Below are positions 33,710 to 58,567 of a stretch of DNA of 64,000 bases, one piece after another. How positions within the stretch are numbered: the first letter of the stretch is position 1; the number at the start of each line of letters is the position of its first letter. The notes below the pieces were generated by a model. It saw only the letters and a list, made by a program, of their open reading frames with translations. It made no database searches and was not told the origin of the DNA. The DNA is from an uncultured Bacteroides sp. (lineage in GTDB: Bacteria; Bacteroidota; Bacteroidia; Bacteroidales; Bacteroidaceae), in assembly GCA_964419245.1 (NCBI GenBank), contig CAYQOV010000003.1, forward strand, positions 21,334 through 85,333. Reading direction: 5' to 3'. Both the position numbers and the translations under genes were made by a program.

Positions 33710-33866
33710 TACACCTCGGAAATACAAAAGATGAAAACTGTGTTTTCCTCTTTTGTACTTCACTCGGTTTGCACTATCTTTTCAGAACATAGGCTACACC
33801 TCGGAAATACAAAAGATGAAAACTGCGTTTTCCTCTTTTGTACTTCACTCGGTTTGCACTATCTTT
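33710..33866 (+). repeat. 72-bp direct repeat (period 85) with an internal hairpin, ending at the -7 promoter box
   Basis: TACACCTCGGAAATACAAAAG...CTTTTGTACTTCACTCGGTTTGCACTATCTTT at 33710-33781 and 33795-33866, one mismatch. Confidence 0.9.
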
Positions 33867-33893
33867 GCACCCTCAAACAATGACATTATATAT

Positions 33894-35532: not shown

Positions 35533-35565
35533 TCCTTATCTTTGCGCAACTCCACACTGAACGCT

Positions 35566-35985
35566 ATGATGATACGGAAGCCCTACATTACCGCACTGCT
35601 GCTCCTGCTCAGCATCCTGATGCTGGCAGTGCCCGTCGTGCCCCATCATCATCATGGCAGCGAGGCCATCTGCCTGAAGAACGACCTGCATACGGGTTGC
35701 GGCGAAACGAATCATCACCACCATCCGGCAGGCCATCCCAACTGCTGCCACGACAAGGGCTGCCTCACCCACCAGTTCGTCCAGCGCACGCCGCGGGTGG
35801 AGCGCCAGGCTCCCCAGCCGCGCCCTGTCCTGCAACCGGCCGACCTCAGTCTGCTTGTCAGCTTGTTGTCACCCTACACCGATTCTTATTCAACCGCTTT
35901 ATATTCTCCCTATATCGAATCGCTGCACGGTGTCTACATCGCCCGTGCCTCGGGATTAAGGGCTCCTCCCAGCCTTCTTGCATAA
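35566..35985 (+). CDS. His/Cys-rich exported leader protein with C-terminal RAPP motif (DUF6769-like, from memory)
   Basis: Hydrophobic N-terminus, PHHHH, HHHH, CC..C, and terminal GLRAPPSLLA. The -7 box TATCTTTG at 35537-35544 supports ATG 35566. Confidence 0.85.
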   Translation: MMIRKPYITALLLLLSILMLAVPVVPHHHHGSEAICLKNDLHTGCGETNHHHHPAGHPNCCHDKGCLTHQFVQRTPRVERQAPQPRPVLQPADLSLLVSLLSPYTDSYSTALYSPYIESLHGVYIARASGLRAPPSLLA

Positions 35986-44442: not shown

Positions 44443-47400
44443 TTATTTTCCATTAATCATATCACGAACACAACGAACTTTGACGTAGCTTCCACCTTGT
44501 GTTGTTACGAAACCTTGGGCTGCATCATATGAAAAGCCTGGACGATCTGTTGTATTTCCCGAGAATCCTGTAGAAATAGCATAATAGTCACTCGTTATTC
44601 CTAAAACTGAAGCTTTAGTCGCTAAAACCATCATTTCACGTAGATTTGGTACTCTCCAATATCCCCGATAACTTTGATCATCTCCTGTTTGGCTATAATT
44701 TGCACAAGGATCAAGATCACCCTTCCAAATATTTGATGCTAAGTACGTTGCACCAGAATTCACATCATTTTTCGCTACAACAAATCCCTGAGGCAAACGA
44801 TTCAAGTCGGTCATATTATCCAATGCCGGTTCCTCGTAATGCGGAGCGTACGGTCCATATTGAAGAGCAGAACGATAGATACGAGGATCCAAACGGTCAC
44901 CAAAGTCAAAAATGTAATCGCCTTTGCCTTGATCATAAGAAACATCTCCTAATGCTTTATCATCGACAACAGTCTCATTGGAATTTTGGTCCTTTACCTC
45001 TTCACTAGGCAAATTTCTCACACAACGTACCAATCCCTCATACTTGAACCCTTGATTTTGCTTTCTTGCCCCAAAAGCTCCAACTTCAGCAGCCCATAAC
45101 AACTGCCGAGCATCTCCTTTTGAAGAGGATGAATAAGTACTTGTATAATACAAAACTCCTTCTTCATAAAAAGCATCTGGATAAGCCTTCTTACTCAGCT
45201 GCGTTTTATCTCCTTGAAAAAGTTTGGCAGCATCTGACATGGCTGCACTACCTATCTGTAATCTTGTATATTGATCGCCTGATGCTAAGTACCATCTGAT
45301 TTCATTATCATCTATTTTACCATCACCATCCAAATCTCTATTACGACTTAAGCATGCATAAAAAGGATGAGGATTATTCAATGATTCATTATTTTCTATT
45401 TTATGCTTCAAACTTTGAGAAGATGTCAAATATCCATTAGTTTTGATATTAACATAGTTGTTCCATTTAGAATTACTGTTTATTCCAACCAAATCGATCA
45501 TATTTTTCCTTCCATTAACATCTGAAGTACCCTTTCCTGACCAAAGATTCCACGGGTACGCATTATATTCTGAAAACGGACTATTCTCACAATATGTTTC
45601 CAATCCTATTGCATTAACATTATCTGCTACTGATGCATTATAAAATGTCTGAATAGAACGTTGGGAAATAGAAGTACGAGCCTTCGCATAAATACTATGC
45701 CCATCAGGACTAATATTCATATCGCTGGCTATAGTCATAGTACGATCATTTTGTCTAGTAAATGTAGCCCAACTCACACTCTCTCCACTAAGAGGATTTT
45801 TATCATAATAATATTCATTCACAAAGGCTGTAAAATATACTTTATTATCAGATGATACAATAATTCCCTCATTATTAGTAGATATATCTTCACCATTGAG
45901 CAGTTTTGCCACTAAATTACCTAACTTAACGCACAAGTTATATGGATCTATAAGCTTAGCATTCCCATCTCCAGGATATGAAGAAAGTTCGGAAGAACTA
46001 GCTTGTGAATAAAAATAAACCCACTTATAATCCATTAAATTAAGAATATTTTTCTCACTACTTGCACTTTGTAAATCTTTCGCTATCGCATAAGGACGAA
46101 TATACTCAGATCCACTTAAATCAAACGGAGTAGAAGTCTTCAGAATAAAAGCATTGGCTATTTTCTCGTCTTGAGATAATTCTGATTGATCAGCTCTTAT
46201 AGCATCTCTTATTGCGGCCAAATCATATGAAACAATCATTTGTTCATACGTACAATCCAAATCAAAAATCTCAGAAGCAGTTTCATTTCCTATAATAATA
46301 CCCTCTGCCCCAGGTTGATCACCATCTCCTGTTTCTTTTTTAGCTTCCGTGATAATACTCGTAACTCCTTGTACAGTTATATTATATTGATAACGGGCAT
46401 TTCGTTCCACCGAGAAGTTACCCATGCTTCCCGTGTTACTAAAATCTCCCAAATGAATTGTATAAGAAGTAGTTCCTTGATTTACCAACGTACCATTCTG
46501 ATCTTTTTCTGAATAAGTTCCAGATATAACAACATATGTACTCTTCTCAGGTGCAAACTTCCACTTACGAGTATTTGGATCACGTTCATCACGCTTTGAA
46601 TATTCTTTTTCGCCTATAACATCAATTTTCAACTGAATATTTTCGGGTAAGTAGAACTGACAAGTCTTAGCAATAACGTTATTATCATTATCATATTTAT
46701 TAGCCCATGTCGTAAATTCCTGGGTATCATAATACTGACGTTCTTCCACCACAGGTACAATATCATTATCGGAAATGACCAATGCATTCTGACATACGTT
46801 ATATATCTTATATGTTTGAGGTATAAATTCAATGGAATTGTTATTATTTGTTGCTGTAGTATTGACAGTAAACTCAATACTTGCAATAGGGCGTTTCAAA
46901 AGTATCTTACCTGTTGCTTGTGCACCATCACCTGTTCCTGAAACCTGAATTTTCCCCTCTCCTGTTAGAAATATTGAAGAAATAGAAACAGGTAAAGACT
47001 GATTTGTTGCATAGATTGAATTAATTGCAAATAATTTCTTCTTAAAATCATCTTCTGACTCAATCTTTTTTAATTCATCTAAAAGAGTCTGACTATTATA
47101 ATATGCACTTGAAGTATTTCCTAAAGCATATACAGTATTTTCACCCGTATTTGCTTCAAATGCCCCTGTAACCACATAATCATACTCATTCCCTTGAGCA
47201 GAAGCTTTTATTTGTTCCTGAGGGATATCAACAACTGACACTTTATATCCTCCTGAAAAAATAAATAGAGTCAAATTAGTTAATGTCGGCTTATCAGCAT
47301 CGGCCCGTGAAAGTACCATTTTTTTCGACATTACATCACTCAATCGAAAACTTAAAGAAGATAACTGAACTTTTTCCCCTGAAGCAGATGAAAAATAATC

Positions 47401-47466
47401 ATCATCCTGACATGCACAAAAACAAACGAGTAACAATGCCCAATATATATATATAACTTTCTTCAT
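44443..47466 (-). CDS. Type V pilus tip adhesin (DUF4906-like) with C-terminal C-type-lectin-fold motifs
   Basis: Lipobox CAC, LSR-A processing site, FYLPEN, HLGDF...NFSVERN, RNRDLDGDGKID..EIRWYL, WRVPNLRE and two VRCVR motifs. Confidence 0.82.
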   Translation of the reverse strand: MKKVIYIYWALLLVCFCACQDDDYFSSASGEKVQLSSLSFRLSDVMSKKMVLSRADADKPTLTNLTLFIFSGGYKVSVVDIPQEQIKASAQGNEYDYVVTGAFEANTGENTVYALGNTSSAYYNSQTLLDELKKIESEDDFKKKLFAINSIYATNQSLPVSISSIFLTGEGKIQVSGTGDGAQATGKILLKRPIASIEFTVNTTATNNNNSIEFIPQTYKIYNVCQNALVISDNDIVPVVEERQYYDTQEFTTWANKYDNDNNVIAKTCQFYLPENIQLKIDVIGEKEYSKRDERDPNTRKWKFAPEKSTYVVISGTYSEKDQNGTLVNQGTTSYTIHLGDFSNTGSMGNFSVERNARYQYNITVQGVTSIITEAKKETGDGDQPGAEGIIIGNETASEIFDLDCTYEQMIVSYDLAAIRDAIRADQSELSQDEKIANAFILKTSTPFDLSGSEYIRPYAIAKDLQSASSEKNILNLMDYKWVYFYSQASSSELSSYPGDGNAKLIDPYNLCVKLGNLVAKLLNGEDISTNNEGIIVSSDNKVYFTAFVNEYYYDKNPLSGESVSWATFTRQNDRTMTIASDMNISPDGHSIYAKARTSISQRSIQTFYNASVADNVNAIGLETYCENSPFSEYNAYPWNLWSGKGTSDVNGRKNMIDLVGINSNSKWNNYVNIKTNGYLTSSQSLKHKIENNESLNNPHPFYACLSRNRDLDGDGKIDDNEIRWYLASGDQYTRLQIGSAAMSDAAKLFQGDKTQLSKKAYPDAFYEEGVLYYTSTYSSSSKGDARQLLWAAEVGAFGARKQNQGFKYEGLVRCVRNLPSEEVKDQNSNETVVDDKALGDVSYDQGKGDYIFDFGDRLDPRIYRSALQYGPYAPHYEEPALDNMTDLNRLPQGFVVAKNDVNSGATYLASNIWKGDLDPCANYSQTGDDQSYRGYWRVPNLREMMVLATKASVLGITSDYYAISTGFSGNTTDRPGFSYDAAQGFVTTQGGSYVKVRCVRDMINGK

Positions 47467-47478
47467 AATACATCATTT

Positions 47479-48588
47479 TTAATTGAACTCTATATCCATA
47501 TCACCCTTAGAATTCCAGTCTTCAATTTTTACTTGAAGGTTACTAGAGACAGTAAAAGAACCTGGATTTATAGTACCATTAACTATCAGAATAGTATTCC
47601 GTCCCAATATTGTCCGACTACCTTCTGTCTTATAAAATTCTTTATATTGTCCATTAATAGTCGGAAAGTTCGTAGTACTTAAAGCTATACTAAATCGATA
47701 ATAATCATCAGTATTATCTGTGCTAGAAGGATATAAATAATAAGTTAAGACATTCTCATTTTCACCTACTCCCAAAGTCGCATCTTTCACAAAAGCATGA
47801 TAAGTAAGAGCTGTTTGATTAGGAGTTTGGACATCATTCTCTGTATGCCGATAATAATATACTTTATCTGCGAAAAAACAACCAAACCTCACATGAGTCA
47901 AATCAATAGAAGAAGATGTATTATTAGTAAGATTTACCACAATTTTTGCGACACATCGTATCAAATAAATCGTGATATTTTTCTCTGATATTTGTTCATC
48001 TGTCAAATCCAGAGGCACACCGCCATCATGATATTCTTCACTTTCTTTCACGCCATAACACCCTGTCATGGGTAAACCAGCATCTTTATCTTCAGCTTCT
48101 TCTGTAGTTAATGGGAAAAATGTAGCCTGATTTTCACTATCCCAGGCACGCGCTAAAATTTCATCAGGCTCAAGTTTTCCATTATTATTACCAATGTCAT
48201 ATGAAGTATTCTGATCAATATCTTTCAATAAAGACTCCGTATCAAAAGAGCGTCCCATACTCCCTTCGTTTGCAAAAGCATACACACGTATTTTACTACG
48301 AGGAACACCCACTATGCGAATAGGTTTACTTAAATCAACATTGTTCAATATGCTATTTATCAAAATCTCACCATCAACATCTGTGATAAGAAAACGTAAA
48401 GTCTTTATTTCATTGTCGAAATCATTTACATTATCTACTGTAGATCTACTCAATCCAGCTAAATGAAAATTTAAAGTTACGGTTTCCGATGATGATTCAA
48501 CAATATCTGAATCTTTAATGCACGAACTCATTACCCCAGTTAAAAACATGAGTAAGATTACACTCAAATATTTTCTAAATTTCTTCAT
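47479..48588 (-). CDS. Type V minor pilin (fimbrillin)
   Basis: Lipobox MSSC, LSR-S cleavage site, GLPMTG, LIRCVAKI, and C-terminal VKIEDW donor strand. Confidence 0.82.
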   Translation of the reverse strand: MKKFRKYLSVILLMFLTGVMSSCIKDSDIVESSSETVTLNFHLAGLSRSTVDNVNDFDNEIKTLRFLITDVDGEILINSILNNVDLSKPIRIVGVPRSKIRVYAFANEGSMGRSFDTESLLKDIDQNTSYDIGNNNGKLEPDEILARAWDSENQATFFPLTTEEAEDKDAGLPMTGCYGVKESEEYHDGGVPLDLTDEQISEKNITIYLIRCVAKIVVNLTNNTSSSIDLTHVRFGCFFADKVYYYRHTENDVQTPNQTALTYHAFVKDATLGVGENENVLTYYLYPSSTDNTDDYYRFSIALSTTNFPTINGQYKEFYKTEGSRTILGRNTILIVNGTINPGSFTVSSNLQVKIEDWNSKGDMDIEFN

Positions 48589-48606
48589 ATACAGTCCTCC
48601 TTAAGG

Positions 48607-49560
48607 TTAGTTCCAATCCGGTTTTCCGTTTACAATCACCCAATCGGGAACTTTAATTTCAACATTCATTTCGCTAAACACGATTGAAATAGGTAATTCA
48701 GCTTCCTGTTTTGTTACATCAATGACATCAGCATTACGAACCAGATAATTATATAGATTTCCACGAACCAGCTCTGTTCCCGTATTTATATCGGTCAAAA
48801 CTAATGTGTGTTCACAATGTTCCGCACTTAATTCTCCTTCGGAATCCATACGGAACAATGCCAAATCTTGTGTACGATAGCATTGATTTTCACTATCATA
48901 TATCAAATCGGGATAAATAGAGCCTTTTTCGTTTAAGTTAATTTCATTGTTAAAAGAAACTTGTGCGTTCGAATTTTCGAAGCTCAGTTGGTAAGGAATT
49001 CCTGCAGTCTGACGTGTTCCACTTGGAGCAGGAAGTCCATGAATTTCTACAAACACCTTCACATGCGCACTGTATAGAGTCACTGTATCACGATACATCA
49101 CCCCTTCCTGATCGGGCATCACGAACTCTTTCTCACCCAGATAATTGTAATCGTGGTTGGTTACAGGAACATTGGGATCACTCCAAGCCGGATCCTGAAG
49201 ATAAATATTGGCAAAATTTGTTTCAGTAGCATAGTTTACCACTTCCGTATGATCGTAATGGTTACCTACAGCCACCACTCTATAACGTTGCCCCGGGCGA
49301 AGTTTAAACGACGGGACAGCTTCGAATTTGGTTAATTCGTCCTGATTATATGAGCCGACTCCCAGTATATGTCCATTCGAATCAAAAACATACAGGTCCA
49401 CCTTGCTCATATACTGGTTCAATACGTCCTTATCGCCGTCAGCCAGATACTGGAAATAGATAGTCACATTGTGACACTCATCCAGATCATCTTTAATACA
49501 ACTGGTCGTCAGGACGGTAGCGACCAGCGCCATTAATATATATCTTACTAATTTCATCAT
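48607..49560 (-). CDS. FimB/Mfa2-family anchor pilin
   Basis: SCIKDDLDEC lipoprotein start, VDLYVFD, VVAVGN, C-terminal IKVPDWVIVNGKPDW. Confidence 0.88.
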   Translation of the reverse strand: MMKLVRYILMALVATVLTTSCIKDDLDECHNVTIYFQYLADGDKDVLNQYMSKVDLYVFDSNGHILGVGSYNQDELTKFEAVPSFKLRPGQRYRVVAVGNHYDHTEVVNYATETNFANIYLQDPAWSDPNVPVTNHDYNYLGEKEFVMPDQEGVMYRDTVTLYSAHVKVFVEIHGLPAPSGTRQTAGIPYQLSFENSNAQVSFNNEINLNEKGSIYPDLIYDSENQCYRTQDLALFRMDSEGELSAEHCEHTLVLTDINTGTELVRGNLYNYLVRNADVIDVTKQEAELPISIVFSEMNVEIKVPDWVIVNGKPDWN

Positions 49561-49595
49561 TCTTATTAAGGTTTATTATTTCTGTATGTTCGGAG

Positions 49596-49628
49596 TATTT
49601 TGGCGGAGAGTCATTCTCCGCCAAAATA
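49596..49628 (-). terminator. 14-bp stem-loop just after the major pilin gene (attenuator or mRNA-stabilising hairpin)
   Basis: TATTTTGGCGGAGA-GTCAT-TCTCCGCCAAAATA; no clear U-tract on the minus strand. Confidence 0.7.
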
Positions 49629-49640
49629 AAACTTTAATTA

Positions 49641-50732
49641 TTACTTATTCCATTCTACTGTTGCATTCACCAATGTCCAAGGTTCAACAGTAACGGTAGC
49701 CGTCAACGTAACGCCTTCACCGTCAGGAGTAGGACCAAGATCACCATCCTCAAGAATCAATCCCGTTATATTATAAATATAGCCAGCCTTGAAATTTGTA
49801 ATATAGCCACTATCATCAATACCATCATCTTCGCCTTCAGGTAACTGCAACTGACCTTTACTACTATCAAATTTGTATTTAGCCACCCTTGCATATCTAT
49901 ATGGTGATCCCGATACATTATTCTGTTCTGCACCACTAAAGCAAACAGTCAGTTTAGGGAGATTGTCAGCACCGCTTGCTGGGAATATGTTATAAGCATA
50001 GCATTGAGGCTTATCCTCTGCATCATTGGCTGGCCATGGTCCAGTTTGTGCACCTGTACCAATGACAACGGCATTAATCTCATCATAAACAGGGGCATCT
50101 GTCCATGTTTTAACAGTTTCCCAAGCTCCAATGTTATCAGCAATAGCCTTATCAGTTCCATTCTCTGTCTTAACAGCTCCATTCAGATAGATGCCATCTA
50201 ATGTAAGTGCAGTATAAGAAGATCCTTCAGTTGTGAATTTAAGTCCAGAGAACTGCAAACGGGCCAGACGACGCTCCAAATTGATGGTTACTGTATAATT
50301 ACCTGTCTTCTCATCTTGCACGAACGTGGATGATTCGCCATAAAGCGGTTCTGCCAAACCTGTATCATAAACGCTGGCCAAACTCATACCGGTCTTAATT
50401 CCATCATTAACGACAACCTTTATTAATTCCGGAGCTCTTACACCTGTAAATGTTATCCCTTTACTTAAATCACCATCACTAAGTTCTTGATCAATATCAC
50501 CTTCCGATGCAGTTAAAGTAATTGTACCACTTTTTACTTCAACAGGAAATGTTTTTCCATTATTCCCTGTGGTTGGTGTCTCCAGGGTTCGAGTAATAGC
50601 ATCACCTACAAATCTGACAGTTACTGTAGCACCATTTTGATGGGCTGTATCTATCACTTCTTCATTGTTACATGCCGCAAAAGCCAATCCGGACAATCCG
50701 AGCATAAAAAACTTGTTCATTTTCATAACCAC
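49641..50732 (-). CDS. Type V major (stalk) pilin, FimA/Mfa1-like
   Basis: Lipobox FAAC, ITR-T cleavage site, RRLARLQ, FKAGYIYNI, terminal VTVEPWTLVNATVEW donor strand. Confidence 0.85.
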   Translation of the reverse strand: MVMKMNKFFMLGLSGLAFAACNNEEVIDTAHQNGATVTVRFVGDAITRTLETPTTGNNGKTFPVEVKSGTITLTASEGDIDQELSDGDLSKGITFTGVRAPELIKVVVNDGIKTGMSLASVYDTGLAEPLYGESSTFVQDEKTGNYTVTINLERRLARLQFSGLKFTTEGSSYTALTLDGIYLNGAVKTENGTDKAIADNIGAWETVKTWTDAPVYDEINAVVIGTGAQTGPWPANDAEDKPQCYAYNIFPASGADNLPKLTVCFSGAEQNNVSGSPYRYARVAKYKFDSSKGQLQLPEGEDDGIDDSGYITNFKAGYIYNITGLILEDGDLGPTPDGEGVTLTATVTVEPWTLVNATVEWNK

Positions 50733-50782
50733 AAATTTTAGTTAATAAATATCTATTGTATGATCTCTCTGTTTTCTCAAAC

Positions 50783-52243
50783 TTATTCGCTGAACAGTGC
50801 TTTGGCTTCCTGTAGCTGTTTCAGGTTGCCGGAAGCATCGCTGTAACCGGCTTTGACCGCCCGGGCAAAAGTTTCCTCCGCCTTGTCGGCCTGTCCGCTC
50901 TTATAGTAGGCCACGCCCAGCAGGTTGAGCGAAGCTCCGTCCGTTGCACCCTTCAGCAGGGCGATGGCTTCGTCGTAGTGTTCCGTTTCGACTGCAGCCA
51001 AGGCGGCATTGTTGCGGGCTGCAAAGTTGTCGGGATAGGTACGCACCGCCACATCCAAGGTCTTACGATAGCCATCGGAGTTGCGTCCGTAGCTGTCGGC
51101 CACGCGCTGTATCTCTGCCACACTGAGCAGGTCGGGACGGGTCTTCAGCACTTCTTTGGCTTCTTCGAGCGTGAAGTTGCGCACGTTGTACTCGATACGG
51201 TATTCGTTGCGACGCAACGGGGCATAAAGCTCGTCGATCAGGTAGCGGTAGTCATCGGACGAAAGCTGCTGGCGGATTTTCCATTCGCAGCCGTCGAGGT
51301 CGTCATCGCACTGATCAATGGCTTCCTGCACCTTTGCACGGGCCGACCATCCGTCAGCCTGCTCTACCTGAGCCACAAAGCCGTCCCAGTCTTCACCCTT
51401 CCAGGCCACGTGCCAGAGGTCCTTCTTCAGTTCGGGATTTTGTTTCTGCACGTAAGCGGCAAATGTCTCTGCACGCTGCTGGGAAAGACGCAGGTTGTAG
51501 GGCATCGATCCTTCGGGAGACGCATAACCGGTGACGTAGACGCCCGTCACGGTCAGGTTCAGATTCCGCTTCACCGTTTCGAGCGAATGCTGTACACTGT
51601 CCAGCTCGGCACGGTTCTTACGGAAGTTCGGCAACACGTTGTAACCGTTTACAGGGTATTCCAGACGGGCCATCTTTACCTCTGAACGCCGTTTCACTTC
51701 TTCCTCTTCGGGCTGGACAAACGGAGAAACCGCGAGCACCGGATCCTGATAGGGCAAGATGCTACCTGCGGCCAACACCTCATCGCCTTCGGAGCACTCG
51801 GCACAGCCCGTGACATAACCGCGCAGCTCCAGGCGTCCGTTCACCATCCAGCGGTTGAAAGGCACCTCGGTAGTATAATCTACCGTCTGCGGCTTTCCAT
51901 TCTGACGCTTTATGCGCACAAGACCCTCTTCTTCTGAAATAGTGCCTAAAGCGATCTTACGTTCAGTCACCTTATTGCGAACTTTGCCTTCCAGCACCAC
52001 CGGCTTCAGTTCCATCTGCTGACTACCATCGGCCGATACCAAAACCGGCACTAGCCGCAAGGTCTGCTGACGGTTCAGTTCCACAGCGTCCAACCGGATG
52101 TCGGCACTCACCCGAACACTACGCCCGACCTTCTCCACCTTACTATTTTCCAGCGTCAGGCTTTCCAGGTAATGCGTCTGCCCCAGAACAGCCATCGGAC
52201 ATGCCGCCAACATCCATGCAAAGAATATCATTATCTTTTTCAT
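50783..52243 (-). CDS. DUF3868 / OmpA-like domain / TPR protein
   Basis: VTGYASPEG..YNLRLSQQRA and AWKGEDW OmpA-like motifs; C-terminal TPR (NLLGVAY). Confidence 0.88.
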   Translation of the reverse strand: MKKIMIFFAWMLAACPMAVLGQTHYLESLTLENSKVEKVGRSVRVSADIRLDAVELNRQQTLRLVPVLVSADGSQQMELKPVVLEGKVRNKVTERKIALGTISEEEGLVRIKRQNGKPQTVDYTTEVPFNRWMVNGRLELRGYVTGCAECSEGDEVLAAGSILPYQDPVLAVSPFVQPEEEEVKRRSEVKMARLEYPVNGYNVLPNFRKNRAELDSVQHSLETVKRNLNLTVTGVYVTGYASPEGSMPYNLRLSQQRAETFAAYVQKQNPELKKDLWHVAWKGEDWDGFVAQVEQADGWSARAKVQEAIDQCDDDLDGCEWKIRQQLSSDDYRYLIDELYAPLRRNEYRIEYNVRNFTLEEAKEVLKTRPDLLSVAEIQRVADSYGRNSDGYRKTLDVAVRTYPDNFAARNNAALAAVETEHYDEAIALLKGATDGASLNLLGVAYYKSGQADKAEETFARAVKAGYSDASGNLKQLQEAKALFSE

Positions 52244-52259
52244 ATTCTTCCTCCTTCCC

Positions 52260-52832
52260 TTATTTAATAATGTATATCAGAGAAACGGCAGCCTTGGTGA
52301 CACCCAGGTAGTTCTTTTTGCCGCTATCTTTCCATTCACCGCATTCAGGGCACTCGTACTTGTCGTAATGAGCGCGTATATAGCCGACGCCGATGGCAGC
52401 CTCGATGCTCCAGCGCTTTCCCAGCAGCCACTGGTAGCCATAGACCAGACCGGCGCCAGCATACCAACCTTCGTAGCGGTAGTTCTCCAGGTTCTTCCAG
52501 AGTCCGAACGGCATCTTGATACCGCCCCAGTTGTACTGTCCGCCCAACAGATGAGCACCGACAAAGTGGCCGTTAAAGCGTTCGCACAGCCAGTAGCGGG
52601 CTTCGGGCTGAGCCAGCCAATGCTTCCACTTCTTGTTGTCGTTGAAGGTCCAGCCGTTGTAGTTGGCAGACAGATCCAGCGTCCACTTGGGGGCAAGGCC
52701 GATTTCCGCACCCAGGTTGACCGTTGCTGTCGCGTCGTAAAGCAGGTTGGTCTTGACAGCCCAGTCCTGAGCCGACAAAGAAATGCTGACAAACAGCATC
52801 CATAAGAGCAAGATTCGTTTCATATTTTTCAT
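52260..52832 (-). CDS. DUF3575 outer-membrane beta-barrel protein, first gene of the pilus operon
   Basis: AVKTNLLYDAT, HWLAQPEARYWLCE and RYEGW motifs. ATG 52832 (or 52823) gives a signal peptide. Confidence 0.92.
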   Translation of the reverse strand: MKNMKRILLLWMLFVSISLSAQDWAVKTNLLYDATATVNLGAEIGLAPKWTLDLSANYNGWTFNDNKKWKHWLAQPEARYWLCERFNGHFVGAHLLGGQYNWGGIKMPFGLWKNLENYRYEGWYAGAGLVYGYQWLLGKRWSIEAAIGVGYIRAHYDKYECPECGEWKDSGKKNYLGVTKAAVSLIYIIK

Positions 52833-52880
52833 TTTTATAGCACGATTTCTTTCAATCTCAATAAAAAAACAGGCTTTTCT

Positions 52881-53539
52881 GTTACTTTGTAGGTAACGGT
52901 GAAAGACGTTTTTCAAGACTCTTCTTCCTTTCACACGGAATGAAAAAAGTTCTTTCAATGAAACTTCACTACAAGAAGCTGTGTGTCAATAGCTTGTAGT
53001 GAAACCAACAATTTTCCCTCCTGTAACTGTGAAAGCAGTGTGAAATACATCTCGTTTCACTTCATTCGGTTGCTGTTCAGTGTTTTATGCTTCGTGTGAA
53101 GCCTTGAAGGCAGAATCTAGAAGAGAACTTGTAAACATCTACTTTAGCGTCATAAACATCTACTTTAGCCGCGTAAACAGGCACTTTAGCCAAGCCAACA
53201 TCTATATTTGTGGAAGGCGGTTCCTTTCCGTAGGCAGGTCCGGCCTCACAGTAGGGGCGTGAAGCGGAGGGCGGTTTTCAGGCGTATAGAAGGACTGGCT
53301 GTCTGAGCGTAGCGAGTTCCTGTCTTTTAGCCCGAGAATCGTCCGAAGTAGTCCCGGAAGTGCAGCTGTGTTCCTTTCTTTTTGGTATCTTTTTCTTTCG
53401 GGCAGGCGAAAGAAAAAGTATGAACTTTATAATCGAACTGTAAAATTTTAATGTTAAAATCCAGTTCTTGTTTGTTTGTCTGTAAATAAAAGTTTAATTT
53501 TGTACCATTGATTTAAATCAACGTTACCTACAAAGTAAC
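52881..53539. promoter_or_regulatory. Invertible promoter segment (659 bp) bounded by perfect 18-bp inverted repeats; OFF orientation
   Basis: GTTACTTTGTAGGTAACG (52881-52898) and CGTTACCTACAAAGTAAC (53522-53539). Internal promoter TTTG (53471-53474)-N20-TAATTTTG (53495-53502) faces away from the pilus genes. Confidence 0.9.
53131..53204. repeat. About 3.5 tandem 21-bp units (TAAACATCTACTTTAGC) inside the invertible segment
   Basis: TAAACA at 53132, 53153 and 53174; a degenerate copy at 53195. Confidence 0.8.
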
Positions 53540-53614
53540 CGTATCTGCACATCTTTCCCGAAACGTAAAATAATCTCCTTTCACCAAATTACAACCTGAT
53601 TATACGGTTGTCAC

Positions 53615-54592
53615 CTAATTGGGGGACACTTCCGCCCAAAGGCATAAGAAAAGCCCCAAGAGATCAGGCACAAAAAATACTTGTGAAAGAATCTCCCGGT
53701 TCATCTGTCCGATACGTTCGTCTGTATGCCGTTTGAAATAGGTTTCAGTAACCTTTACAGATGAATGGCCCATGGCGTGGCTGATCAGCTCCTGCTGGTA
53801 GTTGTGATAATTGGCAATCGTGGCCCAACTGTGACGGGCGCAATAGCTGCTGAGTACCGAACCGATGCCCATCCGGACACCCAGCTGCTTCAAGTCGGCG
53901 TTGAAGTTGCGCAGGGCTGCCTGATAACAACGATAGGCACGAATACCCGTGCCCTTGATAAAGGGGAACAGATAGGGAGAGCTTTCGTCGGAGGTTTTCA
54001 GCTGCTCGATCAGCGACATGGCGCGGGGCTCTACCTGCACGGAAAGCCAGGAACCGGTCTTGCGCCGGCGGTAAACCAGAACATCCCCCTGAAGGTCGCA
54101 CTTACGGAGATAGGCCACGTCGACAAAGGGAATGCCACGCAGCATGAACAACAGCAAGAACAGGAGACGGGCTTTCTCCAGACGGGCGGTGCAGCCGGGT
54201 AACGGTGTGTCCAGCTTGCGGAACACAGACTCGTCGAGCGCCCGTTTCACCGTGACACGGGTACCGGTATAGACTCCCTTGAACAGTCGGGGACGAAACG
54301 GAGCACGTCCCGCATCGACACCGCGGAAATAGACTGCGCGAAGCATGCGCATATAGGTGGAAATGGAGTTCCACTGCAGCTGGCGGTCCAGTAGGTAGTT
54401 CTGGAAACTTTTCAACCAAAGAGGGGTCACCTCACAAAAAGAAAGAGGGACACCCCCGGTGAAGTCGAGCACACGACGCAGCGTACTGCGATAGACGTGT
54501 GCCGTACCGGGGCGTCCCTCTTTCTCCAATTGGAGGATCAGGGCGGCCATACAGGCCGTCAAAGATTCTTTTCCTTTTTTCATAAGCTTCAT
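53615..54592 (-). CDS. Tyrosine site-specific recombinase, probable invertase
   Basis: SAM-like N-domain; catalytic R (LRGIPFVD), K (RRKT), YCARHSWAT, MGH and Y (TETY); no arm-binding domain; adjacent to the inverted repeats. Confidence 0.93.
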   Translation of the reverse strand: MKLMKKGKESLTACMAALILQLEKEGRPGTAHVYRSTLRRVLDFTGGVPLSFCEVTPLWLKSFQNYLLDRQLQWNSISTYMRMLRAVYFRGVDAGRAPFRPRLFKGVYTGTRVTVKRALDESVFRKLDTPLPGCTARLEKARLLFLLLFMLRGIPFVDVAYLRKCDLQGDVLVYRRRKTGSWLSVQVEPRAMSLIEQLKTSDESSPYLFPFIKGTGIRAYRCYQAALRNFNADLKQLGVRMGIGSVLSSYCARHSWATIANYHNYQQELISHAMGHSSVKVTETYFKRHTDERIGQMNREILSQVFFVPDLLGLFLCLWAEVSPN

Positions 54593-54697
54593 GGGTTATG
54601 AGTTAAAATCCAAAGGAAAAATAAGGAAAAGAACTGAGAATGAACGAAGATTCTCCCATTTTTCTTTTGCAGGAGAATCTGTATCAGCCTTCACGCA

Positions 54698-56998
54698 TCA
54701 GTAACTGATCTTCACTCCCGCAAAATAGGAACGGGGCAGGCCAGGACCGTAGATGTAGCCGGAGTCGCGCAGCTTGCCCTGGTCGAAGTCTTTCTGATAG
54801 GCGTTGAAGAGGTTCTGTACGCCGGCATTCACCTGAAGGGTGATATCCTTGTAGAGGGTGAAGTCGTAAGCGGCCTTGAGGTTCATTTCCCAGAAACTGG
54901 GCGTAGTCTCGGCACGGTCTTTCTCGATGTAGCCGGCACGGTGTTCCACCAGCATACTGTCCGTATAGGTACCCGACAGGGCGATGCTCAGAGGTTTCAC
55001 AGGACTGTAGGTCAGGGTCATGTAGCCATAGGTGTCGGGCGTGCGGAAGATGCGCTTCTCCATGGGAACGGTTTCATCGTCGCTCCACTGGCGGGCCTCC
55101 TTGTATTCCGCCTTCTGCAGGGTAACGCCCGCCTGAAGCTGGAGCGTAGTGAGCCAGGCCAGCTTGCCTTCGAGCGTCACGCCATAGACACGGGCTCCTT
55201 TCTCGTTGTAGCGTTCGTTCTTCAGGATGCCGTCTTCGGTGCCGATCTGGCGCAAGGCAAAGGCGTCGGACAGGTTGGTGTAGAAACCTTCGACCAACAG
55301 ATTGCCCTGCAAGGCGCCCCAACGGTGGTACAGGTCGGCCGAAAGACTGACGCTGCGCGACTTCTCTTCACGCAGGTCCTTGGCCAGCTGGATCATGGAT
55401 ACGTTGCCACCCACGTTCTCGACATGCAGGTCCTCGTCGAAGGCCTGCGGGGCACGGAAGCCCACGGAGTAGGCGGCACGCAGGTTGATATCTTTCGTGG
55501 GATTGTAGCGCAGGTTGACACGCGGACTGAAGATGACGTGGTCTATCAGATTGTGCTTGTCCAAACGTCCGCCTACAAGGAAACTCCAGTGGTCGTTCTT
55601 CCACTCGTTCTGCAGGAAGGCGCCGGCGATGCGCACCGTCTGGTCGATGTAACGGTTGTAGCCCCACATCTTGTCGTGCATGGCGTCCTGGTTGTACTCC
55701 ACACCACCCGTCAGGTCGGCAGGCAGGAAGAGGCAGCGGTCGAAATGGTAGACATACTGCGAACCGACTACCCACGTCAGGTCTGTAGTGGCACCGTAGG
55801 CATTGAGCGAATGGTCGCCACCGTAGTAGCTGTCGCGGTCGATGTGCTGCATGGAGGCGTAGACATTGACTTTATGTTTTTCGTTGGGCGAAAAGTAGTC
55901 GAACTTTACGCTACCGCTATTGATGCTGTGTTCGGTCTGTTCGGTGATGTCGGTCTCGTGGGGCGGACGGTCGAGCAGGTTACCGCCACGGCGGAACTCC
56001 TGCAGATGGTGGTACTCGAAGGTCAGCTTGGAGTAAGTACTGGTCTTGAGGAAGGAACGGAAGCCTACGGTCTGGTTGCGCAGCTTGGGCAGCTCGGTGA
56101 AGCCGTCGCCGTCGTAGTCGAAGCCGCTGCGCTGGCGGTTCTGCCCGAAGACATAGATGCCCGCCTTGTGGTTGTCGGTCACCAGCGAGGCGTTCATCGT
56201 CGTATTGTTGTCGAACGCAGAGAAGCCTCCTACACCCATAATCGTATGTCCCAGTTGGGCGGAGTTGCGCAGGGGTTCCTTGGTGATGATGTTGATGGTA
56301 CCCGCAATGGCCGACGCACCGAAGAGGGCCGAACCGCCTCCACGCATCACTTCCACACGTTCGATCATGTTGGCCGGTATCTGCTCCAACCCGTACACAC
56401 CTGCCAGAGCGCTGAATACAGGACGCGAGTCTATAAGAATCTGGGTATAGGGACCGTCGAGGCCGTTGATGCGCACCTGCTGGAAACCGCAGTTCTGGCA
56501 GTTGTTCTCCACACGCACGCCGGGCTGAAAGTTCAGTCCCTGAGCCAATGTGGTAGAGTTGGTCTGTTCGAAGAGCTTGAAGTCCATGACGTTGACCAGC
56601 GTGGGGGCTAGGCGTCGGGTCGTCTCACTGCGGTTGGCGGTGACCACCACGCCGTCCAGCGCCACAAGGTCTTCCTCCAGTTCGAAATTCTCTTCCAGCG
56701 TGACGCCCTTCTTCAGAACGACTTCGCGTGTCAGTGTCTTGTAACCTACGGAGCTGACTTGCAACGTAAAGCGGCCTTCGGGCAGATTCTTCAGAAAATA
56801 GTGTCCAGTGGCATCGGTCAGGGTACCGATGGTGGTTCCTTTCAGGGAAACGGTAATATAAGAGAGGTGTTCTTTGGAATGTTTTTCCAATACATGTCCT
56901 ACGATGTTGGCATCCGAACTCTTCAGTTCTTCGGCCATAAGAGTGGCTGGCAGCAATGCGCACAGCAGAGCCACCACAAGAAAGATATATTTTTTCAT
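54698..56998 (-). CDS. TonB-dependent receptor (FepA/CirA-like, probable metal uptake)
   Basis: ATG 56998 gives a signal peptide; plug PGVRVENNCQNCG...RINGLDGPYTQILID; IERVEVMRGGGSALFG; terminal ISY. Confidence 0.93.
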   Translation of the reverse strand: MKKYIFLVVALLCALLPATLMAEELKSSDANIVGHVLEKHSKEHLSYITVSLKGTTIGTLTDATGHYFLKNLPEGRFTLQVSSVGYKTLTREVVLKKGVTLEENFELEEDLVALDGVVVTANRSETTRRLAPTLVNVMDFKLFEQTNSTTLAQGLNFQPGVRVENNCQNCGFQQVRINGLDGPYTQILIDSRPVFSALAGVYGLEQIPANMIERVEVMRGGGSALFGASAIAGTINIITKEPLRNSAQLGHTIMGVGGFSAFDNNTTMNASLVTDNHKAGIYVFGQNRQRSGFDYDGDGFTELPKLRNQTVGFRSFLKTSTYSKLTFEYHHLQEFRRGGNLLDRPPHETDITEQTEHSINSGSVKFDYFSPNEKHKVNVYASMQHIDRDSYYGGDHSLNAYGATTDLTWVVGSQYVYHFDRCLFLPADLTGGVEYNQDAMHDKMWGYNRYIDQTVRIAGAFLQNEWKNDHWSFLVGGRLDKHNLIDHVIFSPRVNLRYNPTKDINLRAAYSVGFRAPQAFDEDLHVENVGGNVSMIQLAKDLREEKSRSVSLSADLYHRWGALQGNLLVEGFYTNLSDAFALRQIGTEDGILKNERYNEKGARVYGVTLEGKLAWLTTLQLQAGVTLQKAEYKEARQWSDDETVPMEKRIFRTPDTYGYMTLTYSPVKPLSIALSGTYTDSMLVEHRAGYIEKDRAETTPSFWEMNLKAAYDFTLYKDITLQVNAGVQNLFNAYQKDFDQGKLRDSGYIYGPGLPRSYFAGVKISY

Positions 56999-57070
56999 GT
57001 GTCTTCTATTTAATAATTTGAATAAAGGAAATGATAGATGCATCTAAACAGATGCTCACCACAGATTACA

Positions 57071-57394
57071 TCAACAAGAGAAGACACAAACGGGAGGGGC
57101 GCGCAGACGGATGCCGTCGTCCGGCCGACGCAGGCAGAGGCACGACGTACGCGCCACAACCAGCAAGCCCAACAGGGCACAGAAGCAGGGAACGGCAACC
57201 AACAGCACAGGAACGGAGGAAGCCACATAGTGGTCGAGGAAGAAGATGGTCTCGGCCTGGCTCTCGGTGTGCTGATGACCGGTTTTGAAGGGATGCGAAT
57301 GCACAATGATAACTCCGTTCACCACATGTGAGTGGGTGAACAGCGTAACTCCTCCCCAATACGCCAGGAACAGCAGGGGAAGAAAATACTTCAT
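57071..57394 (-). CDS. His-rich membrane/exported leader protein with C-terminal RAPP motif
   Basis: MKYFLPLLFLAYWGGVTLFTHSHVVNGVIIVHSHPFKTGHQH...IRLRAPPVCVFSC. Promoter TTTG (57473-57476)-N20-TATCTTTG (57445-57452) on minus. Confidence 0.85.
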   Translation of the reverse strand: MKYFLPLLFLAYWGGVTLFTHSHVVNGVIIVHSHPFKTGHQHTESQAETIFFLDHYVASSVPVLLVAVPCFCALLGLLVVARTSCLCLRRPDDGIRLRAPPVCVFSC

Positions 57395-57524
57395 AATGCG
57401 GCGCAGTTTCTCCAAAAGCGTTTGTTTATGATTGATTGTGGCGGCAAAGATAGGAGTATTTAGGCGATCCAACAAATTTTCAGTCTCCCCATTTATAAGG
57501 ATTTAAAACAGAATAACGACAAGG

Positions 57525-57560
57525 TGCATCACATTTCGGGACAGGTTTCCCTTATTTTTA
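57525..57560 (+). promoter_or_regulatory. Candidate WYL-regulator box and -7 element for the WYL operon
   Basis: TGCATCA-N5-CGGGACA, a 9-nt spacer, then TATTTTTA. Confidence 0.55.
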
Positions 57561-57655
57561 CAGCATAAAATTGGAACATTTTTTATAAATTTGGAATTAA
57601 AATATTTCACTTAGAAAAAATCAGCAACATACATCTCAAAAGTCTGTAGCATACC

Positions 57656-58567
57656 ATGTCAATACTGAATAAATACATATGGATAGTCGATACCCTGCAT
57701 CAAGCAGGCGAACGCGGTATTTCACTGAAGGAACTGAACGAAAAATGGGTACGCAACGAAGAACTGAGCCATGGTGAATCCATTCCGCGCCAGACCTTTG
57801 ACCGCTGGAAAGGAAATATTTTGGATTTGTTGGGCATAATCATAGAATGTCATACCAAAGGCGGTTATCGGTATTACATTGAAAATCCGGAGGTTTTATC
57901 TGACAGCAAACTGAGCCGATGGTTACTTGATACTTATAGCACAGTCAATGCTCTATCGAAGCATACCGCATTACACAACCGCATTCTAGTAGAGGAAATC
58001 CCTTCAAACAGAAACTTCTTGGCACTCATCATCAATGCCATGAAGGAAAATAAAATTGTAGCTCTCACCTATAAAAATTTCATTTCGGACAAAGAACACT
58101 CATGCCCCATCTGCCCCTATTGCCTGAAGATGTTTCAAAAACGATGGTACACGCTGGCTTTGAGTGTTAATGAAAACAAGTTGCGTATTTATGCACTTGA
58201 CCGAATTGTGAATGCACAACTTACAGAGCAACATTTCACTATACCCAAAGATTTTGATGCAAGGGAATACTTCTCCTCTTATTTCGGAATAGTTCTTGAT
58301 GAAACAGTAAAAGAGCAACGAATTATACTACGCGCTTATAAACCACATCAGAATTATCTTCGAACTCTTCCGCTCCATCCTTCGCAAAAAGAAATATACA
58401 CATGTGAGGTCTATTCAGACTTTGAACTTTTTCTTCGCCCAACCTACGATTTCGTCATGGAATTACTTCATGCCGGAGCATTGGTCGAGGTGCTGGAACC
58501 CGAGTCTTTGCGACAACAGATGTACAGTTGGGTGAAAGATTTGTGGAATATGTACAAGAATAAATAA
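57656..58567 (+). CDS. WYL-domain transcriptional regulator (wHTH-WYL-WCX)
   Basis: N-terminal ISLKELNEKW...IPRQTFDRWK wHTH; CPYCLKMFQKRWYTL...IYALDRI WYL core; YLRTLPLHPSQ and VEVLEPESLR WCX. Confidence 0.93.
   Translation: MSILNKYIWIVDTLHQAGERGISLKELNEKWVRNEELSHGESIPRQTFDRWKGNILDLLGIIIECHTKGGYRYYIENPEVLSDSKLSRWLLDTYSTVNALSKHTALHNRILVEEIPSNRNFLALIINAMKENKIVALTYKNFISDKEHSCPICPYCLKMFQKRWYTLALSVNENKLRIYALDRIVNAQLTEQHFTIPKDFDAREYFSSYFGIVLDETVKEQRIILRAYKPHQNYLRTLPLHPSQKEIYTCEVYSDFELFLRPTYDFVMELLHAGALVEVLEPESLRQQMYSWVKDLWNMYKNK

Follow-up and report, generated by a model that had tools for sequence, protein, structure and literature searches.

RESULTS

A leader ORF precedes a TonB-dependent receptor gene

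On the reverse strand of the window, the whole stretch of 64,000 nt of DNA analyzed here, a short leader ORF lies ahead of the gene of a TonB-dependent receptor (Table 1). Read from its ATG (57394-57071), the leader has a C-terminal LRAPPVCVFSC, and this translation bears out the preliminary description of a 107-aa ORF ending in LRAPP with the RAPP codons at 57103-57092. The in-frame TTG at 57415 appears the likelier start, since TTG is found in 11 of the 12 relatives listed and several of them have no second Met. As for the receptor, an in-frame ATG at 57043 was rejected as its start because it lies inside a variable hairpin and the relatives start at MKKY. Searches of the leader against Pfam (E ≤ 0.5) and NCBIfam returned no family, and those of four homologues against Pfam gave only a weak EXS match. 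The AF2 model of the leader (mean pLDDT, 79.6) has strands at residues 20 to 25 and 28 to 33; a fold search with this model against 48,161 chains was uninformative (best Z, 3.2). Among 34 receptors, the plug carries an invariant C167xxC170 (CQNC, 56500-56489), and H347, H357, and D523/H525 are also conserved; the receptor itself scored below the cutoff of all 25 NCBIfam models listed and gave generic plug matches only in a PDB sequence search.

Upstream of the leader, the candidate -7 box TATCTTTG is preceded by a TTTG that we take to be the -33 element of a Bacteroides-type promoter. A TAnnTTTG box stands 50 to 260 nt upstream of the first His codon at 101 of 134 loci of the leader family, compared to 11 of 134 control windows, and a sigma-70 promoter/terminator scan called no site at the leader. 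Leader and receptor are both covered by RNA contigs from four studies and are bridged by one of them, these contigs carrying no transcript ends, strand, or levels; as a weak signal, RNA-library contigs of the four studies end near 57364-57452 and none lies within 57557-57990.

Table 1. Features of the leader-receptor locus (positions in the window)
Feature	Positions	Strand	Description and basis
Candidate -33 promoter element TTTG	57473..57476	-	20 nt upstream of the -7 box; sequence
Candidate -7 box TATCTTTG (TAnnTTTG), leader-receptor transcript	57445..57452	-	Bacteroides-type motif
Leader ORF	57071..57415	-	114 aa (TTG 57415) or 107 aa (ATG 57394); matches no Pfam family
N-terminal hydrophobic helix, signal or signal-anchor	57335..57394	-	Residues 1-20 from ATG; AF2 helix 4-18
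Six-His cluster, candidate metal site	57269..57334	-	H21xH23, H32xH34 (predicted beta-hairpin), H40xH42
RAPP codons, predicted arrest site	57092..57103	-	Assigned from CruR: P site, first Pro; A site, second Pro
5' arm of sequestering stem	57079..57088	-	nt +10 to +19 from predicted P-site codon; covariation
Inner hairpin in intergenic loop	57031..57062	-	Folding; variable between relatives
3' arm, receptor translation-initiation region including A of AUG	56998..57007	-	Pairing, covariation
TonB-dependent receptor	54698..56998	-	766 aa; Pfam PF13715+PF07715+PF00593

The leader belongs to a large family in Bacteroidota

The leader family comprises 1,373 clusters at 50% identity in Bacteroidota (E ≤ 0.001) and is present in 88 of 401 sampled genomes of Bacteroidales. 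R[AG]PP occurs in 150 of 163 leader-family profile matches and in 47 of 54 of another set of profile matches, and 2 to 6 codons follow PP at 124 of 134 loci; the supplement of PMC12992588 gives RAPP as depleted in Bacteroidota proteomes (mean bias, 0.137). Three HxH motifs in order were found in 103 of 107 aligned members, the rows having been preselected for a His pattern. The third HxH lies 56 to 59 aa from the Arg of RAPP in 120 of 129 cases, while the distance from the first His to this Arg ranges from 74 to 90. Among 60 representatives, 48 have an N-terminal hydrophobic segment (19-residue hydropathy ≥ 1.6) and just 1 has a CxxC. The downstream gene encodes a TonB receptor at 121 of the 134 loci and sometimes a CzcB-like efflux adaptor instead. 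No conserved third gene naming the metal was seen in the neighborhoods of 20 leader loci, and no leader match was found upstream of a Persicobacter receptor.

A stem links the end of the leader to the receptor start

The 10-nt stretch TGTGTCTTCT (57088-57079), 3 nt past the last Pro codon, is the exact complement of AGAAGACACA (57007-56998), whose final base, 56998, is the A in the ATG of the receptor, as the preliminary description had claimed. The 10-bp stem closes both the MFE and the centroid structures (-25.7 kcal/mol; z, -2.69; matched by 2 of 200 shuffles). Its duplex energy of -14.7 was reached by none of 3,540 noncognate arm/start pairs from 60 divergent representatives and, thus, the stem is more than a chance pairing. 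In a related strain, 57078-57012 is swapped for 163 other bases and both arms are kept. The footprint of a ribosome stalled at RAPP, predicted to reach about +16, would cover 7 of the 10 arm bases and bring the computed opening cost of the start region, 13.4 kcal/mol, down to 6.3; the earlier idea that a stalled ribosome covers the 5' arm agrees with this computation, which places that arm under the predicted ribosome and the 3' arm over the initiation region. An Rfam search of 54000-58000 yielded three chance matches only (E, 0.77 to 0.95) and no Rfam family.

The stem covaries across the family

Covariation was measured in fixed windows by pairing the 18 nt after PP with their own or with swapped downstream start regions. 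Cognate and swapped duplex energies were -6.88 and -3.66, respectively, at 134 loci (z, -18). With one member per cluster, z was about -12 at <50% identity (60 clusters) and -6.5 at <45% (40 clusters), values that come from predicted energies and from loci that remain related even after clustering. The same windows gave a z of -10.7 at 40 held-out loci, with +0.9 for a control window, and 150 generic gene pairs of the same genome gave -0.4. The peak is limited to 5' windows starting 6 to 15 nt into or after RAPP and, on the 3' side, to windows from -30 to +10 of the downstream AUG, and arm sequences are unrelated between lineages (22 representatives listed). Covariation of the stem in homologues, which the preliminary description had suggested as a check, is therefore found, and about half of the loci have a strong stem. 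The fixed windows with swapped controls were relied on because a search for the best partner anywhere proved too permissive, 107 of 134 loci reaching -9 kcal somewhere and 17 of 47 near the AUG, compared to 10.5 expected.

We also observed that the covariation stays anchored at the AUG although the intergenic length varies from 23 to 398 nt across the family.

In all 57 strong stems, pairing begins at +4 to +13 from the P site, and the A of the AUG is paired in 15 of these 57. The conserved feature is the masking of the A-rich region upstream of the AUG rather than of the AUG itself; the inclusion of this A in the arm, put forward in the preliminary description, holds at the present locus and does not extend to the family. 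The footprint cuts the opening energy by more than 2 kcal in 20 of 47 representatives, compared to 3 of 47 with a shifted footprint. Within the tested window, 64 of 121 receptor-heading loci fall short of a stem of -10 kcal, close relatives such as L020 and L022 among them. In the 16 nearest relatives, the fixed-register pairs are mostly invariant and thus uninformative.

At CzcB-like efflux-adaptor loci of the leader family, the stem has the same polarity (z, -3.9 for 19 loci; -1.0 for the first 11 alone), and DUF6769 leaders show the same covariation between the post-RAPP segment and the initiation region (z, -9.3; 29 loci). Since this polarity is also found upstream of efflux adaptors, the RNA alone does not fix the sign of control. 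An inverted, antisequestrator layout at efflux-heading members was rejected, as the pooled data show unchanged polarity.

Expression of relatives under chelation

BT0503 of B. thetaiotaomicron is a member of the leader family, with BT0504 downstream. Under dipyridyl, the BT0503 and BT0504 mRNAs rise equally, by 2.4-fold (2.39 versus 2.43), and PG2006/PG2008 by 3.2/2.0-fold, compared to 109- to 291-fold for the hmu iron operon; the figures in colitis are 8.9/4.9-fold (PMC10434189). The DUF6769-led BT2038-2040 pump is upregulated 2.5- to 3.3-fold under chelation, alongside the 2.4-fold of BT0503-0504. These chelator responses are at the mRNA level, small, and may be indirect. PMC12094164 and PMC12119571 hold nothing on the metal.

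DISCUSSION

Judging from the sequence, receptor translation is likely unlocked by a stalled ribosome, probably in response to metal shortage. We propose a model of a promoter-leader-receptor unit, which we favor somewhat over its alternatives taken together, in which stalling at RAPP would melt the stem and allow translation of the receptor, and the six His, by taking up a divalent metal, most likely zinc, would release the stall and turn the receptor off. The parts of this model differ in strength: it is very likely that a stall at the predicted arrest site opens the stem, likely that the signal read by the leader is a metal, and reasonably likely that the metal relieves the stall. As to its identity, our judgment places zinc first, as a tentative choice, followed by nickel or cobalt as a weaker candidate, copper as an unlikely one, and iron or heme as the least likely.

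The proposed sequence of events is based on the following: (i) leader and receptor would be cotranscribed from the TAnnTTTG promoter, whose motif is present and whose transcript the RNA contigs weakly support; (ii) as long as no ribosome is there, the stem would be shut, as computed and in line with its covariation; (iii) the N-terminal helix would take the nascent leader into the Sec channel, and the leader would, as in CruR and ApdP, arrest with Pro100 in the P site; (iv) the ribosome footprint over the arm would, by computation, ease opening of the receptor start region; and (v) at arrest, the His hairpin would stand 66 to 79 residues, and the third HxH 58 to 60 residues, from the peptidyl transferase center, thus probably level with the channel's periplasmic mouth or past it, where metal could fasten the third HxH to the hairpin and tug the chain loose. 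Such a metal-off logic looks backwards for the CzcB-like efflux adaptors, which have the same stem polarity, and this counts against the model.

The opposite sign, as in CutF, would have metal lengthen the stall and turn the downstream gene on. The stem polarity is unchanged where the leader family or the DUF6769 leaders stand ahead of CzcB-like adaptors of CusA/CzcA pumps, and CutF acts in this way on cutO (PMC9973294; bioRxiv 2025.02.05.636593). We nevertheless hold this sign to be unlikely: 121 of the 134 members head a TonB receptor, normally an importer, BT0503-0504 and the DUF6769-led BT2038-2040 are both upregulated under chelation, and arrest at RAPP occurs by default in CruR.

Transcription control of the CruR type, with the stalled ribosome shielding a Rho loading site and the stem being secondary, appears improbable. 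In the literature found, just one RAPP leader of a TonB receptor, CruR, has been tested, and it does work through Rho (PMC9426467); the 30-nt stretch at RAPP is also rich in C (C/G, 1.6 to 1.7), but there is no long C-rich, G-poor tract, C and G being at about 1:1 over the 90 nt before RAPP. The covarying arm anchored on the downstream AUG and the equal dipyridyl rise of the BT0503 and BT0504 mRNAs also argue against it, although Rho could still act after a translation block or in the stemless half of the family.

Even less probable is a SecM-like monitor, in which the stall would be released by Sec pulling, or would sense pH or heme through the histidines, and would couple receptor synthesis to export capacity instead of to a metal ion. 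The N-terminal hydrophobic helix and the stem geometry fit monitors of the SecM/VemP type, whereas the six near-invariant His at a fixed distance from the arrest site, the CxxC/His-bearing receptor, the metal-efflux partners, and downstream genes that are not export factors do not. Finally, a stem unrelated to stalling, whether a terminator, a hairpin for processing or stability, or an artifact of base composition, is highly improbable and largely refuted already: leader ends rich in U readily pair with start regions rich in A and about half of the loci lack a strong stem, but composition is controlled by the swapped pairs, by further windows at these loci, and by the generic gene pairs, no terminator-like site was called, the loops measure tens to hundreds of nucleotides, and no Rfam family was found.

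Metal competition shapes gut Bacteroidales, and Bacteroidota mostly do without Shine-Dalgarno (SD) use; leader control would thus be feasible on start sites without an SD sequence. Through its covariation, the stem makes what was a guess from a motif into a specific switch whose parts are defined, and for this switch BT0503-BT0504 of B. thetaiotaomicron and the paralogue BT_RS02460-65 offer a tractable model. A broader and doubtful hypothesis could be that Bacteroidota metal traffic runs on a protein-based riboswitch platform of at least two unrelated His-rich RAPP leader families sharing one covarying anti-initiation stem. The present leader, as a cysteine-free sensor, would then read zinc in the periplasm, its third HxH closing onto the His hairpin where the Sec channel ends and pulling the chain loose. 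If true, no arrest-peptide sensor for zinc would precede it, the substrate of an orphan CxxC TonB receptor would be identified, and the DUF6769-led Czc-type pumps would be starvation induced rather than plain detoxifiers; Roy 2022 reported no riboswitch for Cu or Zn (PMC9426467).

Comparison with known systems

The class is already known from CruR and CutF, and the leader family is, by its residues, the histidine-only counterpart. The tested metal-sensing arrest peptides in the literature found, CruR and CutF, are cysteine/copper systems of Proteobacteria (PMC9426467, PMC9973294), and a literature search largely outside subscription journals returned no paper naming the leader family or describing the stem.

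CutF, the leader of cutO in Rhodobacter capsulatus, is, as we predict for the present leader, an exported leader with a metal motif and a C-terminal proline stall that melts a stem hiding the initiation site of the next gene (PMC9973294; bioRxiv 10.1101/2025.02.05.636593). It differs by its CxxxC and PPP, the importance of EF-P, stalling promoted by copper, and a detoxifying oxidase as target, whereas the family described here has six His, RAPP, mostly a TonB receptor, and a masked A-rich region instead of a Shine-Dalgarno sequence. With 107 to 114 aa, PP 6 codons from the stop, and a 72-nt gap, our leader falls within these limits of the CutF-like filter of Ozturk 2023 (<150 aa, PP among the last 15 residues at the C terminus, co-oriented neighbor within 1,000 nt). 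That filter also asks for a cleavable Sec/SPI signal peptide by SignalP, for which the hydrophobic N-terminal helix of our leader is a candidate. Of the 29 clusters published, the His-only CutF-like clusters 14 and 17 given in PMC9973294 are tied to HupE/UreJ neighbors, not TonB receptors.

CruR (Bp2923, DUF2946/PF11162) of Bordetella pertussis has a signal peptide, where our leader has a putative signal or signal-anchor, and shares a candidate metal motif at fixed spacing from RAPP, a downstream TonB-dependent transporter, and, as predicted here, a stall that means on; its arrest at RAPP was demonstrated by toeprinting (PMC12992588). CruR, however, has a CxxC 45 residues before RAPP, is signal-peptide independent, and acts by Rho-dependent termination (PMC9426467), in contrast to the His-only candidate site 58 to 79 residues away and the covarying initiation-site stem found here. 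The leader does not match PF11162, and a DUF2946 cluster is merely a distant atlas neighbor of one homologue, P0027 (0.92; 117 of 256 features). The CruR precedent invoked in the preliminary description holds, therefore, for a RAPP leader of a TonB receptor and fails for the mode of action, CutF and SecM being closer through stem opening.

The family belongs to the class of RAPP/RGPP uORFs before TonB receptors in Fig. 4 of Fujiwara 2025 (PMC12992588), our leader having fewer than 300 aa, RAPP near the C terminus, a putative localization signal, and a TonB receptor downstream. The source table of that paper lists family members, including BT0503 of B. thetaiotaomicron, and contains at least 115 occurrences of HSHPF; the tags among the members are BT_RS02460 and BT_RS02470 of this species and BVU_RS15600. 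The idea is therefore less novel than first assumed. The text available from that paper describes neither the His pattern nor the mRNA stem, and it neither names the family nor reports a test of a Bacteroidota TonB leader.

DUF6769 (PF20558) proteins, one of which is encoded in the window, are Bacteroidales His/Cys-rich RAPP leaders of CzcB-CzcA-TolC operons with the same covariation and a longer spacing of 96 to 117 aa; our leader has no PF20558 match and no detectable homology to them beyond LRAPP (hhalign probability, 10%). Lastly, SecM, MifM, VemP, and ApdA/ApdP lack a metal cluster, sense export, and lie ahead of sec/yidC genes, and they would share with the present leader a RAPP-like motif, its third residue in the P site, and an arrest that holds a stem open so that the downstream gene is translated.

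Leader, receptor and stem in the window

The His-rich RAPP leader, its motifs and the 10-nt complementarity between the segment just after RAPP and the receptor start, as claimed in the preliminary description, were all found in place, and this stem closes both the MFE and the centroid folds of 57103-56975 (-25.7 kcal/mol, z -2.69). A TTG codon appears to be the likelier leader start (114 aa), since it is kept in 11 of the 12 relatives displayed. A TAnnTTTG box, which we take to be the Bacteroides promoter consensus, precedes the leader and was found 5' of homologous leaders at 101 of 134 loci versus 11 of 134 control windows; homology with the homologous locus L001 stops just 5' of it, and thus the WYL-WCX neighbor is not conserved. 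The 766-aa TonB receptor passed none of the 25 NCBIfam models shown, and in 34 aligned receptors the CxxC of the plug is invariant and His/Asp/Glu are conserved. Weak, contig-level evidence of expression came from RNA libraries: in four studies, contigs extend over leader and receptor and end near 57364-57452, and one spanning both has the same arms and a different loop. An opposite-strand joint at 53000/53518 in such contigs suggests an invertible segment in the cluster 3' of the receptor.

Features of the window (positions refer to the whole stretch)
Feature	Position	Strand	Remark
His-rich RAPP leader	57071-57415	-	TTG start at 57415
TAnnTTTG box	57452-57445		before leader
Stem arms	57088-57079; 57007-56998		10 bp
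TonB-dependent receptor	54698-56998	-	3' of leader
WYL-WCX domain regulator	57656-58567	+	divergent from leader
Tyrosine integrase/recombinase, DUF3575, DUF3868/OmpA, fimbrillin-like lipoprotein cluster	44443-54592	-	directly 3' of receptor
ABC-F-type ATPase gene	33753-35533	+	directly 5' of DUF6769 leader
DUF6769 (PF20558) His-rich RAPP leader	35566-35985	+	operon to 41775
DUF6769 stem arms	TTCTTGCA 35975-35982; TGCAAGAA 36071-36078	+	5' of ATG 36097

Covariation of the stem

The test started from 146 loci that had RAPP followed by an ORF; removal of 6 unclear starts and 6 duplicates left 134 (3 starts were shifted by hand). The 18 nt 3' of PP were paired against -25..+3 of each downstream start, with permuted pairs as the control. 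This covariation analysis, called for in the preliminary description, bore out the stem, with a mean cognate duplex energy of -6.88 kcal/mol versus -3.66 for permutations (z -18, n = 134). With one member per single-linkage cluster, z was -12.9 (76 members, <60% identity), -11.6 (60, <50%) and -6.5 (40, <45%). A held-out set gave -10.7, its control window +0.9; of the 55 loci in this set, 47 had RAPP, and 40 of them remained once duplicates and unclear starts were excluded. The same type of test on 150 generic co-oriented gene pairs of the same genome gave z -0.4. The 5' window was slid across 39 positions in leader and spacer: z was between -10 and -13 for offsets of +6..+15 relative to the Arg codon and nowhere else, with -5.2 at +18 and at most -3.9 in strength for the remaining positions. 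For the 3' window, the strongest values (z -7.9, -11.3 and -6.6) were found at -30..+10 of the AUG, even though the gap between leader and downstream gene ranges from 23 to 398 nt. As the arms are completely different from lineage to lineage, complementarity was kept while sequence was replaced.

The stem had been described as covering the A of the AUG, which stands for the window and does not extend to most of the family: stems of -10 kcal/mol or better occur at 57 of the 121 loci with a receptor (22 of 49 among the representatives), and of these 57, 49 reach -13..0 and only 15 have the A paired. Thus, the broader rule is that the stem masks the A-rich region 5' of the AUG, of which the window is one instance, and roughly half of the leader family shows weaker or different behavior.

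A stalled ribosome has a footprint of -12..+16. With this stretch forced open, the mean start-region opening energy in 47 representatives was 5.8 kcal/mol instead of 8.5 (8.4 with a shifted footprint as the control; Wilcoxon p 2e-5); for the window, it dropped from 13.4 to 6.3 kcal/mol. In CruR, the third RAPP residue of the stalled ribosome is reported in the P site and the fourth in the A site (PMC12992588); if this register is applied, pairing begins at +4..+13 in all 57 of 57 strong stems.

The leader family and its targets

The leader had no match in Pfam. Its homologues gave 155 matches, with RAPP within the last 30 residues in 97 of 120 among the matches listed, and form 1373 clusters at 50% identity; matches per sampled genomes were 88/401 for the order, 60/251 for the family and 16/401 for the phylum sample, the closest named record being from Caecibacteroides pullorum (99%). 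R[AG]PP is present in 150 of 163 profile-hit segments, the other 13 being variants (10; RPPP, RDPP, KAPP, KGPP, HAPP) or broken or cut (3). Natural variants, these five and WAPP, occur across 15 listed loci (L058, L066, L092, L096, L100, L102, L107, L113, L133, L158, L237, L241, L243, L264, L269) and provide a ready-made series to test arrest strength. In an alignment of 107 members, four His are invariant, with H40 in 102 and H42 in 104, a count that is partly circular since rows were picked for RAPP and the His pattern. Unlike these counts, spacing to the Arg is non-circular: 56-59 residues from the third HxH in 120 of 129, and 74-90 from the first His. The AF2 model (pLDDT 79.6, pTM 0.47) has three helices (4-18, 44-54 and 61-83) and, at 20-33, a hairpin bearing two HxH.

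Downstream genes at the 134 loci encode 121 TonB receptors (CxNC in 117), 11 CzcB-like efflux adaptors or TolC-like proteins (L070, L072, L075, L077, L078, L084, L090, L099, L104, L112, L129; third HxH-Arg spacing mostly 57, not 58) and 2 others. At L039, L040 and L044, a paralogous leader precedes a different receptor, nearest to heme/hemoglobin models (TIGR01786, below cut-off), with a gap of 346-350 nt and no strong stem at the receptor start. At L121, L122, L217 and B. thetaiotaomicron BT_RS02460-BT_RS02475, leader-receptor pairs are arranged in tandem, with a separate leader for every receptor. A third Bacteroides RAPP leader type before TonB receptors, FHxH ... CxIC, carries both His and CxxC (source-table rows BT_RS07200, BVU_RS13615 and BVU_RS22920, PMC12992588).

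The DUF6769 leader of the window, followed by a CzcB-like adaptor, a CusA/CzcA pump and TolC, has no homology to the six-His leader outside LRAPP, and its family shows the same post-RAPP/start covariation (z -9.3, 29 loci). The adjacent ABC-F-type gene looks frameshifted at an A-run near 35490-35500, possibly an assembly error, and reads through the leader to 776 aa; ABC-F proteins are listed among stall-rescue factors in the CutF preprint (bioRxiv 2025.02.05.636593), and the adjacency may be due to chance.

Sign of the proposed switch and the candidate metal

Efflux-heading members of the six-His family covary likewise when pooled (z -3.9, 19 loci; the first 11 alone, z -1.0). With the same covariation at receptors, DUF6769 pumps and these members, the stall is predicted to mean "on" for importer and pump alike, so that the RNA would give no sign.

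In B. thetaiotaomicron, the leader-family member BT_RS02470 lies before the receptor gene BT_RS02475, and BT_RS10325 follows the DUF6769 leader BT_RS10320 (source table, PMC12992588). According to PMC10434189, which maps these as BT0503-0504 and BT2038, dipyridyl raised mRNA of BT0503-0504 2.4-fold, of the BT2038 operon 2.5- to 3.3-fold and of hmu 109- to 291-fold; both operons rose 4.4- to 8.9-fold in colitis. The named P. gingivalis counterpart, PG2006-PG2008, rose 3.2- and 2.0-fold under dipyridyl. A primer published for PG2008, translated here, gives CGFNQV, matching the receptor motif. B. finegoldii has a leader as well, and its genes stand in the same order. These data, although the mRNA changes are small, fit expression when metal is scarce, with iron not the main cue.

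Three points favor metal-relieved arrest over the opposite sign: the targets are mostly importers, chelation raises both B. thetaiotaomicron operons, and the fixed third-HxH distance suggests a folding-generated pull. In our judgement, zinc is the candidate metal, given a site made up of His alone and the weak response to iron; the gene neighborhoods of 20 loci held no gene naming the metal.

Comparison with known systems

A search of mainly open-access literature found no description of the leader family or its stem. With no Pfam match and no CxxC, the six-His leader falls outside DUF2946, the CruR family, by sequence. It belongs to the class cataloged by Fujiwara, whose source table holds at least 115 occurrences of HSHPF (PMC12992588). 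As for CutF-like proteins, Ozturk 2023 (PMC9973294) places 40% in Bacteroidota and His-only clusters next to HupE/UreJ. The RNA step of the six-His leader would work as in CutF/SecM, and its target and presumed sign resemble those of CruR. Altogether, the principle is already published; in this family, the covariation evidence, together with the platform common to DUF6769 and the B. thetaiotaomicron handle, makes it directly testable.
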